A stretch of 16,517 nucleotides of DNA, taken from positions 1 through 16,517 of the forward strand of contig PDZT01000073.1 in NCBI GenBank assembly GCA_002753105.1, in the 5' to 3' direction. The DNA is from Deltaproteobacteria bacterium YD0425bin50 (lineage in GTDB: Bacteria > Desulfobacterota > Desulfobacteria > Desulfobacterales > YD0425bin50). A model generated the notes under the pieces. The model was not told where the DNA came from. It did not search any database and was given only the letters and a program-made list of their open reading frames with translations. Within the stretch, counting starts at the first letter, position 1. Each line of letters starts with the position of its first letter. This document shows positions 2,468 through 8,192 of this stretch, piece after piece. The translations under genes were made by a program, and so were the position numbers.

Positions 2468-4543
2468 ATGAAAATATTAATTGTTGATGATGATCCCATT
2501 ACGTTGGATGTTTTAGATAATTTTTCCGAAACGCTTGGCTTTGAAGTACTCAAAGCCAACAATGGGAAGGAAGCATGGGAACTATGGCAGAATCATAAAA
2601 CAAGCATCGTTATCACAGATATTTTAATGCCTGAGTTGGATGGTTTTTCTCTATGTCAACATATCCGAAATAATGAAATTGGCGTTTATACCTACATTAT
2701 TATTTTAACCATAGCGAATTCGTCTGAATCCATAGCAAAAGGTATGCAAATTGGTGCAGATGATTATCTAATCAAGCCGGTTGATTTTGAAACCTTGCAT
2801 TATCGATTAAAAGCCGCAACACGAATCGTTAACTTAATCTCTGAATTAAAAAGAACCAAGAATGATTTAATCAAAAAACAGATAGAACTAACCTTTATTA
2901 CTGAAAGACAACACGTTGAATTGATCCAAGCCAAACAAGTTGCCAATATTGCCAATTTGGCAAAAAGAGATTTTCTGGCAACGATAAGCCATGAACTCAG
3001 AACACCGATGAATGGTATTATTGGAATTGCAAGCCTGTTACAGGAAACAAGACTCAATGAAACACAAATAAAATATACAACGATTCTAAACAACAGTGCC
3101 AATGAATTATTAAAACTGATCAATGATATCATTAATTTTACACGAATTGAATCAGGAGACTTACTTGTAGAATATTCGAATTTTGATTTACAGATGTTGA
3201 TTGACGATTTAATGAAGCAGTTTTTACCTAAATCCAACAAAAAAAACATAGAATTGACTTGTGACATCAAAGAAAACGTGGAGTTACAGCTCTGCGGAGA
3301 TTCAGGTAAATTATTCAATATTCTCCAGCAATTATTGGATAATGCAATCAAATTTACCCATCAGGGTAAAATAACGATGAATGTGTTCACAAATCCTCTT
3401 CATGATAACTGTATTAAACTCAATATATCCATCTCTGATTCCGGGATTGGCATATCAGATGAGAATTTACAGAAACTCTTCCAGCTATTTTATCGCGCAG
3501 ATACTTCTTTAACCCGAAAATATCCGGGGCTTGGTATTGGACTGGCTACGTGTCAGCGTTTAATAGAGATGATGGGAGGAAATATTCATGTAAAAAGTAA
3601 ATACGGTGTTGGTACAACCGTTTGGCTTTCGTTGATATTTGAAAAGCAATCCCATAAAGAGCCTGTTACAGACCAAATCAATAGGGTACCTGTTGTGCAA
3701 CATCATAAACAACCCAGTTCAAAGTCTTCTTCTGGATTACAAGCCCATATACTCGTTGTAGAGGATACATATGAAACTCAAATGATTGTACAGGCAATAC
3801 TTGAAAAAGAGAAATACAATGTGGATTTTGCATCGAATGGAAAAATTGCAATTCAAATGCTTGAGTCAATTCCCTATGACTTAGTTCTCATGGATATTAT
3901 GATGCCGGATATGGATGGATTAGAGCTTACAAAAAAAATTAGAAATCAGGAAATCCAACTTCATACCCAAGATATTCCGATCATTGCCATGACTGCATAT
4001 GGGTTAGATGGTGATAAAGAACGTTTTTTAAAATCTGGAATGAGTGGTTACTTATCAAAACCCTTTACTGCTGATGACTTAAGGCAGACAGTCGAACAAG
4101 CACTCTTTTTAAGAACGTTGAACCATCCAACGATCTCTGAACATCAATCGGAGAAGTTAGAAAAAAAACAACCATCTGAAACTGAAATCAATGATACCCC
4201 CATTTTTTTTAATCATCAGGAATTGTTGGAACGAACGAATAATAACCCCGAACTTATAAAACAACTCATACACCGTTTCTTATCAGATATCCCCAATAGA
4301 ATTAAATCGATTAAAGATGCTTGCCAAACGAATGAGTTAGATAGAATCGAAATGCTTGCACATACAATTAAAGGTGCGTCAGCCAATTTATCACTAAAAT
4401 CAATGCAAAAAGCAGCAGACCGATTAGAATCATTCGCGCATAAAAAAGAACAAACGCTGATGCCCCACCTTATTCTTGAACTTGAACATCAATTTTTTAT
4501 CTTACAATCCATTCTATCGGAATATATAGCTGATCAGAAATGA
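2468..4543 (+). CDS. Cytoplasmic hybrid histidine kinase, domain order REC-HisKA-HATPase_c-REC-Hpt
   Basis: N-terminal REC (VDDD...ITDILMPELDG...IKP). H-box LATISHELRTPMNGIIG. N-box LLDNAIKFT. G-boxes DSGIGI and GLGIGLA. Second REC (ILVVEDT...LMDIMMPDMDG...SKPF). Hpt motif HTIKGASANLSL. No transmembrane or sensor domain. Confidence 0.85.
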   Translation: MKILIVDDDPITLDVLDNFSETLGFEVLKANNGKEAWELWQNHKTSIVITDILMPELDGFSLCQHIRNNEIGVYTYIIILTIANSSESIAKGMQIGADDYLIKPVDFETLHYRLKAATRIVNLISELKRTKNDLIKKQIELTFITERQHVELIQAKQVANIANLAKRDFLATISHELRTPMNGIIGIASLLQETRLNETQIKYTTILNNSANELLKLINDIINFTRIESGDLLVEYSNFDLQMLIDDLMKQFLPKSNKKNIELTCDIKENVELQLCGDSGKLFNILQQLLDNAIKFTHQGKITMNVFTNPLHDNCIKLNISISDSGIGISDENLQKLFQLFYRADTSLTRKYPGLGIGLATCQRLIEMMGGNIHVKSKYGVGTTVWLSLIFEKQSHKEPVTDQINRVPVVQHHKQPSSKSSSGLQAHILVVEDTYETQMIVQAILEKEKYNVDFASNGKIAIQMLESIPYDLVLMDIMMPDMDGLELTKKIRNQEIQLHTQDIPIIAMTAYGLDGDKERFLKSGMSGYLSKPFTADDLRQTVEQALFLRTLNHPTISEHQSEKLEKKQPSETEINDTPIFFNHQELLERTNNNPELIKQLIHRFLSDIPNRIKSIKDACQTNELDRIEMLAHTIKGASANLSLKSMQKAADRLESFAHKKEQTLMPHLILELEHQFFILQSILSEYIADQK

Positions 4544-4553
4544 CCAAAATGGA

Positions 4554-5780
4554 TTAAGCTGGTTTTTTGACCTGTGAAGGCAATAATACTCGAAAACACG
4601 ATCCTTTTTGAGGAGTGCTTTCGATTAAAATAGTTCCGCGATGTCCTTGCACTATTCCAAGAACCATTGTTAATCCAAGCCCTCTGCCAATAAATCGTGT
4701 GGAGAAAAAAGGATCAAAAATTTTTAACATCGTATTATCGTCCATACCATGTCCAGTATCCTGAACTTCAAAATACGAAAAAAATCCTTCTTGGAGTTTC
4801 ATTTCAATGTGAGCATTAAACAATTCTTCTTTTGAAAAATGTTTTGCATGGGTTCGGATGGTAATTAGTCCGGACTGATTGCCTATGGCTTCATCTGCAT
4901 TGGTCACAAGGTGCATAATGACTTTTTCAATTTGCGCGGTATCTGCTTTGACATCAGGTAACTCTTTTTCTAATTCATAATTCACGATAATATGAGGTGA
5001 TACCGTTGAATCAATGATCGGTTTTAATTCTTTAAGTACCTGATTAAAATTAAGAAAATTGGCAATGATTTTAGATTTGCCAGTATAGTCTATAAGCTGC
5101 TTGGTTAAATCGGCTGATTTTAATGTAGCTTGCTGAATTTTATCCACATATTTGATTAAAGTTGAATCTTGTGGGACGAGTTGTTTTAATATTGATGCAT
5201 TGCCAAGAATCCCCATCAATTGGTTGTTGAAATCATGTGCAATTCCTCTTGTTAAAACACTAAGGCTTTCTAATTTTTGAGCACGTAACATTTGAGCCTG
5301 AATTTTTTCTTTTTCTTTTTCTGCCAATTCGCGCTGTTTGATTTCATTTAATGCTTTGTCTCTCATTTGCCTGTATTCAAAAACGCGCTGGGTGAGCTCA
5401 GTTACATTTTCAATTGCAATTAATGCGTAATGTCCATTTCCATCAAATGAAGGAAACGCCGATATTGTTGTATTCTGATTCATCCATTGACCATTTGAAA
5501 GCAAACATGGAATAAAATACTGATGAAGATGTGTAGAAAATAAGACGGGTGGGCCGCCTTCAAAGATTGTTTCTATTCGGCTTAGATATCGGTCTGTATT
5601 CAAATGAGAGTAGTGTGATAACAGGGAGGTGCCAAGAATTTCATTACTGTGTTTATTTGACCAATATTCAATACATTGGTTCCAAAACAGAACTTGATAT
5701 TCACTGTTGATAACCACCATACCAACAGGAGTATGGTTTAGTACATCGAATTTTTCCAAAGCTAATTTAAAAATGTCCAT
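4554..5780 (-). CDS. PAS-domain sensor histidine kinase (HisKA + HATPase_c), cytoplasmic
   Basis: N-terminal PAS-like region. H-box GIAHDFNNQLMGILG. G-boxes DTGHGMD and GRGLGLTMV. No transmembrane segment. Confidence 0.8.
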   Translation of the reverse strand: MDIFKLALEKFDVLNHTPVGMVVINSEYQVLFWNQCIEYWSNKHSNEILGTSLLSHYSHLNTDRYLSRIETIFEGGPPVLFSTHLHQYFIPCLLSNGQWMNQNTTISAFPSFDGNGHYALIAIENVTELTQRVFEYRQMRDKALNEIKQRELAEKEKEKIQAQMLRAQKLESLSVLTRGIAHDFNNQLMGILGNASILKQLVPQDSTLIKYVDKIQQATLKSADLTKQLIDYTGKSKIIANFLNFNQVLKELKPIIDSTVSPHIIVNYELEKELPDVKADTAQIEKVIMHLVTNADEAIGNQSGLITIRTHAKHFSKEELFNAHIEMKLQEGFFSYFEVQDTGHGMDDNTMLKIFDPFFSTRFIGRGLGLTMVLGIVQGHRGTILIESTPQKGSCFRVLLPSQVKKPA

Positions 5781-5800
5781 GAATATTATATTATTTTAAC

Positions 5801-6412
5801 TTAAACCTGTGAAAAATATTGATCAATCCTATGAATTAGGACATCCATAGATGGCACTTCAAACAAGAGCACAATATCGCCATGAATTGAAAGTTTTTCA
5901 ACTGAAAATTGTGTTTTTGCAAGAAGGATTGCTGTATTTTTTTCAACCATTTTAAAATAAAGATTCGAAGCATAATCCTCAATATAACCCGGTACAACAA
6001 AATGAAGAGGCAAAGACAGCATATTCGAAAATGTTCCCATAACACTGTTCAATACAATATTACCAATTTCAGAAAGTGTCCCTGAACGCATAAAACTAAT
6101 ATCATCCATAGACAAATTATGTATATCTTCACCCGTAACCGTAGCAACGAGTTCAGACGCATTTTCAGATGAAAAAATTAACTGTGCTGTGCCATACAAT
6201 GTGCCTTTAAACCCTAAATTCACTGATGAAAGTTTGTCGTTACCCATTTCTTTTAATTCATTGATTAACTCAGTAGAATCTAAAATCTTAACTAATGGTA
6301 CCCGTAATTGAATATGTGAATTTAATATCTTATTTAATACTGCTGCGCCTTTACCTACTCCGATATTAATGATCTCTGAAAGCGCGTCCATCTGGATACG
6401 TGTTAATTCCAT
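5801..6412 (-). CDS. CheC/CheX/FliY-family CheY-P phosphatase-like protein
   Basis: Two CheC-type active-site motifs, DALSEIINIGVGKGAAVLNKIL...RVP and SGTLSEIGNIVLNSVMGTFSNML...VVP, each with the E-x2-N pattern and a downstream Pro. Confidence 0.65.
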   Translation of the reverse strand: MELTRIQMDALSEIINIGVGKGAAVLNKILNSHIQLRVPLVKILDSTELINELKEMGNDKLSSVNLGFKGTLYGTAQLIFSSENASELVATVTGEDIHNLSMDDISFMRSGTLSEIGNIVLNSVMGTFSNMLSLPLHFVVPGYIEDYASNLYFKMVEKNTAILLAKTQFSVEKLSIHGDIVLLFEVPSMDVLIHRIDQYFSQV

Positions 6413-6429
6413 GATTTAATTTCCAAAAA

Positions 6430-6789
6430 TTAAGAATTGATGAAGCGATGAACTAATGATCTAATGGTCTTTTCATCGGCAGGTTTGTTGATGTAATCCG
6501 CAGCACCTAATTGAAAACATTTTTCTTTTGCTGTATCCTGAATATCGGCAGTTAAAATAATCACTGGAAAATGATATCCCTTATCTTTAATGAGCTTTAA
6601 TGTTTCATAACCGTCCATATCTGGCATTAAAAGATCAAGAAGCATACAATCAGGAGGCGTTTGTTGTATAAGGGATAGTGCTTGAATCCCCCCATTGGCT
6701 TCAATGATTTGATAACCATCTAATTTAAGTATGTTAGCTAATACGCGTCTTGTTAACCATGAATCATCCACAATCATCACTATAGCCAT
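6430..6789 (-). CDS. Single-domain CheY-like response regulator (REC only)
   Basis: 119 aa. IVDD near the N-terminus, phospho-acceptor context LLDLLMPDMDG, conserved T (ILTAD) and K (NKP). The RBS AGGTGA precedes the ATG. Confidence 0.85.
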   Translation of the reverse strand: MAIVMIVDDSWLTRRVLANILKLDGYQIIEANGGIQALSLIQQTPPDCMLLDLLMPDMDGYETLKLIKDKGYHFPVIILTADIQDTAKEKCFQLGAADYINKPADEKTIRSLVHRFINS

Positions 6790-7038
6790 ATACGATCACC
6801 TGTTATTTTTTTTCTTTTATCTTATAGCTATCCTGTCTCTTTTAATTTTTTTACCTTAAATGCTAAATTTTTAAATGTCAATCGATCATTGATAAATTGT
6901 TAATTGTTCAGCGTTCAGAAAAATTAATTATTTTTTATCTTGCTTAGAAATGTTTCTATTTGATATTATTATAATAATTGATCATCAAGAGATTATCATA
7001 TGTAAACAGTAAACAGTTAATTGAAACAAAATAAATAG

Positions 7039-7929
7039 ATGTCTTTAATCGATATTACGATTATTATACCAGTTCATTCTGCTAGTAATTCTCTGTTAAA
7101 CCTGTTTTATTCATTAAACAAACAGAATTGTCACAATTTGAAAGCAGAATTTATCTTTATTATTGATCAATGCCCAGAGAATGTGTTTCAATTTGTTCAA
7201 CACTGGTGCATCTCTCAAGAAAAGCATTCGTGGAAATGTTATGCTGTATCCTATGGAAATTCGGATCAATCAAGAGAATTTGGACGTCAGGCAGCACATG
7301 GAAACATTTTAGCATTTCTTGATGATGATTGTCGTCCTTGTCAGGATTGGTTATGGACAGGATGGCACATGATGATATCTCATTCTTATCTTGTTGCTGT
7401 TACCGGGCCGGTTTTACATCAAGACAACCTGATTGGCACTTGTTTGGCAGTAGCTAATTTCGGTGAATTTCAAGATAATCGCATAAAATTTTTAAAAAAT
7501 GCTCCGGGATGCAATCTGTTTGTACGCTCATCAGCCATCAAGTCATATCCATCTATTCAGGAATGCGGATATGCGGGTGATCGGCTTTTAGCTTCACAAC
7601 TTGCACATCAAGGTAAAATTGCATTCATCCCAACATTAAACGTTTTCCATGATCATGGGCAAACATGGAAAAAAATCCCGATGAGAGAATTTCGATATGG
7701 ACAAGTTGCATGGCTTTCCCGAAAAATAGACCCTTCATTACCGGGGAGCCGAATTTTAAATTTAGGAATAATTGCACCTTTCGTTATATCCACAGCTCGA
7801 TTTGCCATAGATATAAAACGTCTCTGGTCTGGATCATGGCGATTATGGCATCAATGTGTGTTATCCCTTATGTTTATCCCATTTCGCATAGCCTATGGTT
7901 TGGGTGTATGGAAATCAAAATTCCCGTAG
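7039..7929 (+). CDS. Family 2 glycosyltransferase (GT-A fold)
   Basis: The N-terminal ITIIIPVHSA and the FLDDDC (DxD-like) motif are typical of GT2. The stop codon TAG lies inside a REP hairpin. Confidence 0.65.
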   Translation: MSLIDITIIIPVHSASNSLLNLFYSLNKQNCHNLKAEFIFIIDQCPENVFQFVQHWCISQEKHSWKCYAVSYGNSDQSREFGRQAAHGNILAFLDDDCRPCQDWLWTGWHMMISHSYLVAVTGPVLHQDNLIGTCLAVANFGEFQDNRIKFLKNAPGCNLFVRSSAIKSYPSIQECGYAGDRLLASQLAHQGKIAFIPTLNVFHDHGQTWKKIPMREFRYGQVAWLSRKIDPSLPGSRILNLGIIAPFVISTARFAIDIKRLWSGSWRLWHQCVLSLMFIPFRIAYGLGVWKSKFP

Positions 7930-7952
7930 GGGCGAGGCATGCTCGCCCCTAC
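7926..7952. repeat. REP-like palindromic unit GTAGGGGCGAG-gcatg-CTCGCCCCTAC
   Basis: Perfect 11-bp stem with a 5-nt loop. Same family as 1023-1080. It overlaps the GT2 stop codon and may act as a terminator or mRNA stabiliser. Confidence 0.6.
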
Positions 7953-8006
7953 AATCGTGCACCTTTGCATTTATTTCTGATTCTAAAGGATTTTGTGGTC
8001 GACGAA

Positions 8007-8192
8007 AACCCCGAAGGGGTTAAACATACCAGCCCAGGGCAGAGCCCTGGGATAGGAACATATTGAGATAAGCCCTGAAAGGGCGTTACATAATGATGAA
8101 TATATCACGCCCTTTCAGGGCTAAGATGTACTTTGCCAATATCCCAGGGCGGTTGCCCTGGGCTGGTATGTAACGCCCTTTTCAGGGCTTAT
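8007..8192. repeat. Composite array of GC-rich palindromes (BIME/MITE-like) between the convergent GT2 and MVP genes
   Basis: Hairpin AACCCC-gaa-GGGGTT at 8007-8021. Module B (CCCAGGGC-loop-GCCCTGGG flanked by ACCAGCC/GGCTGGT) occurs at 8026-8056 and inverted at 8141-8170. Module A (ATAAGCCCTGAAAGGGCGTTA) occurs at 8068-8088 and inverted at 8107-8125 and 8171-8192. The arrangement B+ A+ A- B- A- forms a large imperfect inverted repeat. Confidence 0.7.

Follow-up and report, generated by a model that had tools for sequence, protein, structure and literature searches.

A 16,517-nucleotide stretch of the Desulfobacterales contig PDZT01000073.1, the whole of which we call the window, carries three adjacent genes for a stand-alone receiver (REC), a CheC-like phosphatase and a histidine kinase with an N-terminal PAS domain, and this trio is one instance of a conserved, widespread three-protein signalling cassette. 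The same gene order is found in nearly all of 166 independent loci from at least nine bacterial phyla and one archaeal metagenome-assembled genome (MAG), and its recurrence across loci places the arrangement far beyond chance. What stays constant in the third protein is the PAS domain and not the kinase. For the window itself we favor, at roughly even odds (a probability of about 0.5), a self-contained kinase/receiver/phosphatase circuit coupled through the PAS domain. No REC-CheC-PAS or REC-CheC-kinase module was found described in the full text of the literature searched, and within those limits the cassette looks undescribed.

The window is the reverse complement of sequence in contig JADGCZ010000052.1 (23,163 bp; GCA_015228675.1, a Desulfobacterales MAG). 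Its three cassette open reading frames (ORFs) lie in tandem on the minus strand, with 17 bp between the receiver and CheC-like genes and 20 bp between the CheC-like and kinase genes:

6430..6789, minus strand: single-domain receiver, 119 aa, the first cassette gene (Pfam Response_reg, 7e-30)
5801..6412, minus strand: predicted CheC-class aspartyl-phosphate phosphatase, 203 aa, with two active sites, E13/N16 and E115/N118 (Pfam, AlphaFold2, Foldseek)
4554..5780, minus strand: PAS-HisKA histidine kinase, 408 aa, with the three domains below
5361..5780, minus strand: cassette-specific N-terminal PAS domain, kinase aa 1-140 (motifs FWNxC, GGPPxxFSxxLH, QxTT, AL..xxVTELTxR)
5046..5303, minus strand: DHp/HisKA domain, phospho-acceptor H182 in H-D-F-N-N (Pfam HisKA, residues 175-232)
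4557..4973, minus strand: HATPase_c ATP-binding domain (Pfam 2.1e-16; N294, G1 D341xGxG, F FDPFF, G2 GRGLGL)

These coordinates agree with the gaps and tight linkage given in a preliminary description of the locus, whose assignment of the products to a REC, a CheC-like protein and a PAS-HisKA kinase is correct for all three by Pfam, Protein Data Bank (PDB) and fold matches. A scan found no convincing terminator between the trio genes, which, together with such short gaps, fits with one transcript.

The CheC-like protein has many homologues at 45-53% identity. A HMMER search over 1.84 billion cluster representatives returned 207 clusters (defined at 50% identity) at E <= 1e-30, 1,308 at E <= 1e-10 and 2,909 at E <= 1e-3, and a scan of one genome per GTDB species placed CheC relatives in at least 515 genomes. 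Among the best 80 loci, 57 are cyanobacterial (mostly Nostocales, with Oscillatoria, Phormidium, Pseudanabaenales, Leptothoe, Hydrococcus and Xenococcaceae also present) and 23 come from elsewhere: Nitrospirota/Thermodesulfovibrionia, Desulfobacterales, Prolixibacteraceae, Spirochaetota, Verrucomicrobia, Planctomycetota, Anaerolineae, Acidobacteriota and three unclassified bacteria. The cassette itself occurs in cyanobacteria, Nitrospirota, Desulfobacterota, six further bacterial phyla and one archaeal MAG, in which it lies on a Halobacteriota contig beside proteasome, prefoldin and exosome genes. At this archaeal locus (L084, 4678-16618) the cassette sits inside a run of at least 10 receiver, PAS and kinase genes, two of them encoding REC-PAS-DUF835 proteins. 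The 86 loci that we selected by their CheC-like gene are dominated by Nostocales; in all fetched loci ORFs were called mechanically, and domains were assigned by single-sequence phmmer probes spot-checked against Pfam.

We define the cassette as a REC gene followed on the same strand by a CheC-like gene and then by a gene whose product starts with a FWNxC...GGPPxxFSSQLH PAS domain, and the window contains all three parts. In essentially every locus, a receiver gene on the same strand as CheC (product ~120 aa; E 1e-23 to 1e-38 against the window receiver) ends within ~10 bp of the CheC start; under strict criteria it lies directly upstream in 148/163 loci. The two proteins are also joined in nature: REC-CheC fusions are seen in P0120 (325 aa), in 13 of the top 150 cluster representatives (317-340 aa, CheC occupying residues ~127-320) and at six loci, Rosetta-stone evidence that the receiver is the partner of the CheC-like protein. 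In a few cyanobacteria the order is altered (PAS-kinase, REC, REC-kinase, REC, CheC), with all parts still in one cluster.

The acidic pocket, the phospho-accepting Asp, and the Thr/Ser and Lys switch residues of a two-component receiver are all present in the window REC, with D52 as phospho-acceptor and D8, D9, T80 and K102 as the other key residues. Across 148 cassette receivers D9, D52 and K102 are invariant, position 8 is D or E, and position 80 is S or T. The best PDB relatives of the protein are Spo0F (1e-17), RR468 (1.4e-17) and Thermotoga maritima CheY (1.4e-17), followed by Escherichia coli CheY at ~1e-12. The label "CheY-like" in the preliminary description therefore does not stand as worded: by these scores the protein is a single-domain receiver of generic type, no closer to CheY than to Spo0F or RR468. 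Its gene is preceded at 7 nt by an AGGTGA Shine-Dalgarno motif.

The second protein is a member of the CheC/FliY/CheX superfamily (Pfam clan CL0355) by fold, motifs and Pfam score. It scores above the cut-off for CheC (PF04509, 27.9 bits vs 22) and below that for CheX (PF13690, 24.7 bits vs 27), and by sequence it matches T. maritima CheC in the PDB (1xkr, 5e-10). An AlphaFold2 model built from 27 homologues (predicted local distance difference test score, pLDDT, 84.9; predicted template-modelling score, pTM, 0.85) has the CheC alpha/beta fold with internal two-fold pseudo-symmetry. In Foldseek searches of the PDB this model matched CheC 1xkr (E 4.9e-17, template-modelling (TM) score 0.79), FliY 4hyn (1.2e-16), a Haloarcula CheC-like protein (3qta, TM 0.81) and the CheC-CheD complex 2f9z, while CheX structures cover about half of it (TM 0.52-0.56).

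The superfamily consensus for the active site, (D/S)-x3-E-x2-N-x22-P, occurs twice in CheC and FliY. In the window protein the first site reads D9-x3-E13-x2-N16-x22-P39 and the second E115-x2-N118-x22-P141, with G111 (adjacent to S110) in place of D/S. Loss of the E-x2-N sites had been named beforehand as grounds for abandoning the preliminary reading; on alignment they are intact, and the catalytic-site residues are kept in 152-158 of 158 near-full-length relatives. The protein is thus predicted to be a two-site enzyme of the CheC/FliY type. It is not an orthologue of the canonical chemotaxis CheC: although NCBIfam NF041093 (CheC_Thtogales) aligns with residues 1-196 over 201 model positions at 1.7e-20, the score of 73.8 bits does not reach the equivalog cut-off of 250 bits, and the gene has no che or cheD context here.

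In the kinase, only HATPase_c clears its Pfam cut-off (60.8 bits), with PAS_4 at 22.1 bits against 23.1 and HisKA at 24.5 bits against 26.9. Its G1 and G2 boxes carry D341, G343 and G345, and G365, G367 and G369, and H182 together with the N, G1 and G2 box residues is invariant in the 71 relatives that carry a kinase core, which backs the kinase call despite the sub-cut-off HisKA score. The core of the window kinase is complete. The PAS domain has no sequence relative in the PDB; its AlphaFold2 model is of high confidence (pLDDT 93.5) and its fold neighbours are generic (short LOV, DosP, FixL and NifL), with TM scores of 0.67 at most and ~16% identity. We considered and rejected a LOV/flavin domain. 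The short LOV proteins, the best matches, reach a TM score of only 0.60-0.67 at ~16% identity, heme and flavin adenine dinucleotide PAS domains match about equally well, and the model puts the conserved Cys36 where B-beta joins C-alpha, outside the E-alpha GxNCRFLQ motif.

This PAS domain is shared throughout the family. Residues 1-140 of the window kinase align with the N-termini of third-gene products from any phylum and with any output (phmmer iE 1e-32 to 1e-45), at about 36-50% identity across phyla and with the common motifs FWNxCLExWT, IFxGGPPxIFSSQLH, QHTTVT and YAL..DVTDLTxR..YRxMRD; W33, N34, R68, P78, S82 and H86 are invariant in both of our PAS alignments. The domain is present in 82/86 CheC-selected loci. 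Three of the four others (L008, L036 and L058) are cut by contig ends, and the fourth (L047) shows no PAS match in the 1.2 kb after its CheC gene. In a reciprocal test, a metagenome scan that started from the PAS alignment alone gave at least 387 relatives, and 77 of the 80 loci fetched contain a CheC-like ORF. Of the three that do not, L104 is a contig-edge fragment and L122 leaves no room upstream; the sole real exception is L163 (4983-6728), which alone among the PAS-selected loci combines ample flanks with the lack of both a CheC-like and a REC gene and is possibly a decayed or rewired member of the cassette.

The C-terminal parts of the third protein, by contrast with its PAS domain, vary. 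Among the 86 CheC-selected loci, the PAS domain is followed by a DHp-CA-REC hybrid kinase in 59 and by DHp-CA, as in the window, in 3, with one more cut by a contig end. A further 4 have PAS then HATPase, with a DHp too divergent for the single-sequence probe; GAF/PAS-GGDEF accounts for 5, PAS-DHp without ATPase for 2, PAS-DHp-REC-GGDEF for 1 and PAS alone for 4. The 80 PAS-selected loci include 28 PAS-DHp-CA-REC proteins, 15 with GGDEF, 16 plain kinase forms, 3 with a C-terminal Hpt and 5 complete PAS-only proteins. Pfam scans agree with these architectures. Stand-alone PAS proteins of 205-295 aa without an output domain are common, and those of 205-240 aa sit on long contigs and are not truncation artefacts; in Spirochaetota (L010) and Verrucomicrobia (L018) a bare REC-CheC-PAS triad lies amid unrelated metabolic genes. 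A search of a 5.8-billion-protein index was rejected as a census of architectures: the PAS alone gave 1 match and the alignment 63, all of <=251 aa, because the word index evidently favoured short proteins, and the metagenome loci were used instead.

Across these architectures, it is the N-terminal PAS domain, and not the kinase, that REC and CheC have as their constant third partner. The description of the locus as a kinase/phosphatase pair suits the window and does not carry over to the family, in which the kinase part may be swapped for GGDEF, reduced to DHp or absent. The earlier guess at a cyclic-nucleotide output is borne out in those relatives whose third gene ends in GGDEF.

The relation of the cassette to Che systems differs between the window and much of the family. 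Among called genes with Pfam matches, none in the window or in the 20.6 kb read of JADGCZ010000052.1 encodes CheA, CheW, an MCP or CheD. The 86 CheC-selected loci, however, include 55 with CheA, 49 with CheW, 48 with an MCP, 43 with CheB and 43 with CheR, the che-positive loci being essentially all of the cyanobacterial ones with enough flank read. In Nostoc sp. NIES-3756, for example, the cassette is divergent from an adjoining cluster of cheA (Hpt, H-kinase_dim, HATPase_c, CheW), cheW, MCP, cheB and cheR genes; here and in a near-identical strain (L082/L083, 1017-10261), the loci whose called genes have Pfam annotation, the cassette REC is the only single-domain receiver of the che cluster. 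An 89-aa ORF without a family match lies at these two loci between the che cluster and the REC-CheC-PAS hybrid-kinase unit. At L086 a cheA-cheR-HDOD-cheB-cheX-cheX-REC-kinase run precedes the cassette, after which comes an Hpt-bearing hybrid kinase. Since cyanobacteria lack flagella, the che-linked cassette there does not serve flagellar chemotaxis.

The closest relatives of the window locus, in two Desulfobacteraceae, have third genes without an ATPase domain: PAS-DHp-REC-GGDEF at L004 (3009-4688) and PAS-DHp at L048 (8596-9411). Where the window has a convergent Hpt hybrid kinase, both have a convergent orphan CheA, Hpt-bearing and with no CheW or MCP nearby, and at these loci the genes suggest a CheA to REC to DHp to REC-GGDEF relay. 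The claims that CheA, CheW and MCPs are missing and that the system stands outside CheA-based chemotaxis hence hold locally, for the window and the 20.6 kb of contig, and fail for the family, given the che clusters adjoining cyanobacterial cassettes and the CheA beside these Desulfobacteraceae relatives. No CheA was found in the flanks read (<=8 kb per side, less on short contigs) of the Nitrospirota, Verrucomicrobia, Spirochaetota, Anaerolineae, Acidobacteriota and archaeal loci, and no CheD was seen among annotated cassette neighbours.

Hpt domains recur beside the cassette. Among 122 immediate neighbours in loci without the Nostoc-type cluster, the commonest Pfam domains are Response_reg (20), Hpt (9) and HATPase_c (8), with CheW and H-kinase_dim at 3 each; at L113 a stand-alone Hpt protein is encoded just upstream of the triad. 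Because Hpt domains are rare in genomes, we read their second place in this count as enrichment for Hpt-bearing phosphodonors. Two features flank the cassette directly in the window:

2468..4543, plus strand: hybrid kinase REC-HisKA-HATPase-REC-Hpt, convergent with the PAS kinase (Pfam domains)
6790..7038, unstranded: AT-rich divergent intergenic region, 249 bp, upstream of the REC gene (sequence read)

The hybrid kinase may be an additional phosphodonor or acceptor for the receiver. Its stop codon and that of the PAS kinase are 10 bp apart, too short a distance for a terminator hairpin. Beyond the intergenic region, a GT2 glycosyltransferase gene points away from the trio, and the region is presumed to hold the promoter of the three-gene operon. 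Promoter-like hexamers within it are no commoner than in shuffled sequence, and the promoter and terminator scan as a whole gave counts equal to those from shuffled sequence.

Other genes of the window are noted here for completeness. The hybrid kinase gene is preceded by plus-strand genes for a DsbA-like thioredoxin-fold protein (1589-2428) with a C-terminal tail rich in Pro, Thr and Ser, a PspA/IM30 protein (295-966) and a YiaAB two-helix membrane protein (1117-1440), in what looks like an envelope-stress neighbourhood. The 133-aa plus-strand ORF at 7665-8066, odd in composition and in overlap with the glycosyltransferase gene at the latter's 3' end, is unlikely to be a gene. At 8276-10789 the minus strand encodes an 837-aa bacterial homologue of the eukaryotic Major Vault Protein (Pfam MVP_shoulder 3.5e-27 and Vault_3 5.7e-8; PDB MVP chains 1.6e-11 over aa 488-804; no NCBIfam match), and the 7.5-11.5 kb region around it has a G+C content of 0.40-0.42, compared with 0.32-0.36 elsewhere. 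A 285-aa protein (12153-13010, minus strand) contains a HisKA/DHp domain (7e-9) without an ATPase domain, behind ~190 N-terminal residues that match no family; it recalls the PAS-DHp third genes of L003 and L048.

In the circuit that we favor for the window, the PAS-controlled kinase would autophosphorylate on H182 and donate the phosphoryl group to receiver residue D52, whose aspartyl phosphate the CheC-like enzyme would then hydrolyze with E13/N16 and E115/N118. The PAS domain, in putative contact with the CheC-like protein or the REC, would be the physical link between the transmitter and the pair of receiver and phosphatase, keeping the supply of phosphate in step with its removal. A second phosphate route into or out of the receiver may run through the Hpt of the convergent hybrid kinase, in favor of which the recurrence of Hpt-bearing neighbours across the family counts, and the phosphorylated receiver (REC~P) would act on its target by protein contact. 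It is gene adjacency that points to specific transfer from this kinase to this REC, and the direction of phosphate flow is our inference. Two properties of the family weigh against such a circuit. The third protein of many relatives (PAS-GGDEF, PAS-DHp without ATPase, or PAS alone) is unable to phosphorylate, so that the ancestral role of the third gene was not simply that of a kinase for the REC. In most relatives, too, the kinase is a hybrid with a C-terminal receiver of its own (59/86 and 28/80 loci), an arrangement that points to a relay and away from direct transfer to the small receiver.

Since relatives without a kinase core still keep REC, CheC and PAS, the ancestral logic must be an interaction between REC/CheC and PAS. 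By analogy with chemotaxis proteins, it could have run in either of two directions: the PAS domain may modulate the phosphatase, as CheD does CheC, or the REC~P/CheC input may gate the PAS-linked enzyme, as CheY-P/CheC captures CheD. A tentative generalization, which we hold to be possible though doubtful, is that REC, CheC and PAS form a portable input module in which the CheC-class protein, more than a drain for phosphate, is a REC~P-dependent adaptor: docked on the PAS domain, it would gate the enzyme fused there, be it a histidine kinase, a hybrid kinase or a diguanylate cyclase. If so, the module would represent an unrecognised wiring of CheA arrays and Hpt relays to phosphorelay and cyclic di-GMP outputs, spanning bacteria from cyanobacteria to Desulfobacterota and some archaea.

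Applied to the window, a related alternative makes REC and CheC the input of the PAS protein: another donor, such as the convergent Hpt or a distant CheA, would phosphorylate the REC, and REC~P/CheC would dock on the PAS domain, an effector in the place of CheD, and switch the attached kinase, which would then signal to a different regulator. Capture of CheD by CheY-P/CheC in Bacillus subtilis is a precedent, the PAS domain occupies the N-terminal input position in every output type (kinase, hybrid kinase and GGDEF), it is as conserved across phyla as REC and CheC and almost never occurs without them, and Hpt or CheA neighbours recur. We nevertheless consider this alternative rather unlikely, as an effector role hardly fits the common stand-alone PAS proteins, which lack an output domain, and the window operon offers the kinase no other cognate regulator. 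The recurrence of CheA also bears on the idea that the cassette is an accessory branch of a CheA pathway encoded elsewhere, with the REC as its CheY, the CheC-like protein as its phosphatase and the PAS kinase as a secondary input. Such a branch would suit the cyanobacterial loci with enough flank read, all 57 of which adjoin cheA-cheW-mcp-cheB-cheR (the more so at L082/L083, with no other single-domain receiver in the cluster), the embedded cassette of L086 and the orphan CheA next to L004 and L048, and a cheC lies inside the che cluster of an Arthrospira genome (PMC2853384). For the window we regard it as improbable: the 20.6 kb of contig contain no che gene, the kinase encoded there is complete, and CheA is absent from the flanks read at the loci of Nitrospirota, Verrucomicrobia, Spirochaetota, Anaerolineae, Acidobacteriota and the archaeon.

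A non-catalytic, scaffolding CheC-like protein, comparable to the FliM middle domain, or a merely fortuitous adjacency of the three genes can be effectively excluded. The FliM middle domain does share the fold in Foldseek comparisons, and the NCBIfam CheC equivalog cut-off is not reached; FliM lacks the E-x2-N-x22-P sites, though, and both are conserved in 155-158 of 158 members of the family. The gene order, found in about 160 independent loci from at least nine bacterial phyla and one archaeal MAG, argues against chance. The kinase/receiver/phosphatase circuit, coupled through PAS, remains the account that we prefer for the window.

Set beside known systems, the cassette ranks as a two-component or phosphorelay module that includes an auxiliary phosphatase of the CheC class and a PAS partner of its own. 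The class I CheC of T. maritima and B. subtilis (1xkr, 2f9z) resembles the window protein in its fold, in its two pseudo-symmetric E-x2-N-x22-P sites and in acting on a single-domain receiver, as is proposed here. The two share ~20% identity, below the equivalog level, and differ in their company. Canonical CheC has a third, non-substrate protein partner, CheD; the constant partner of the cassette protein is the PAS domain, and the contig as read encodes no CheD, CheA, CheW or MCP. In Rhodospirillum centenum (Che3/CheS3) and Myxococcus xanthus (Che3/CrdS), a CheA-based cluster and a PAS/HisKA kinase reportedly converge on a few receivers, as in the cyanobacterial version of the cassette. These systems are not known to carry a CheC-type phosphatase, and the window cassette, unlike them, has no che cluster beside it.

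The Dif system of M. xanthus, in which the CheC homologue DifG acts on DifD/EpsW (PMC2577667), likewise combines a CheC-type phosphatase and single-domain receivers with a non-flagellar output, and Dif-like clusters are reported for Geobacter (PMC4671073). Dif, however, is built on CheA (DifE), CheW and an MCP, with CheD, and has no dedicated PAS protein or HisKA kinase. Response-regulator censuses recognize REC-CheC fusion regulators as a "CheC-like" class, for example Psyr_0886 (PMC2222644, PMC5654926); these join the receiver and CheC as P0120 and the other fused representatives do, whereas the window keeps them as separate genes. In the Bacillus sporulation phosphorelay, Rap and Spo0E phosphatases act on Spo0F and Spo0A (PMC3035606). 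There too a dedicated phosphatase drains a small receiver, and no other solved receiver is more similar to the window REC than Spo0F. The cassette receiver may similarly take part in a His-Asp-His-Asp relay, the presumed order being one that the PAS-DHp-REC-GGDEF protein and CheA of L004 and the Hpt of L113 bring to mind. The Rap and Spo0E phosphatases differ in having folds unrelated to CheC.

CheC-family phosphatases are treated as chemotaxis parts in databases and reviews, and MiST classes every CheC-domain protein as chemotaxis (PMC2808908). The subfamily identified here is large and phylogenetically broad, its constant partners are a small receiver and one PAS domain, and its outputs include histidine kinases and diguanylate cyclases. 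For annotation, this means that the cassette genes should not count as evidence of flagellar chemotaxis. The parts of the window instance are ordinary; the pattern at the level of the family is robust and broad, and it lends itself to experiment. Should the cassette work as we propose, it would be a new case of auxiliary-phosphatase control in ordinary two-component signalling, it would give a defined function to a highly conserved orphan PAS subfamily, and it would provide a testable link from the Che-like clusters of non-flagellated cyanobacteria, among them the genetically tractable Nostoc, to downstream kinases.

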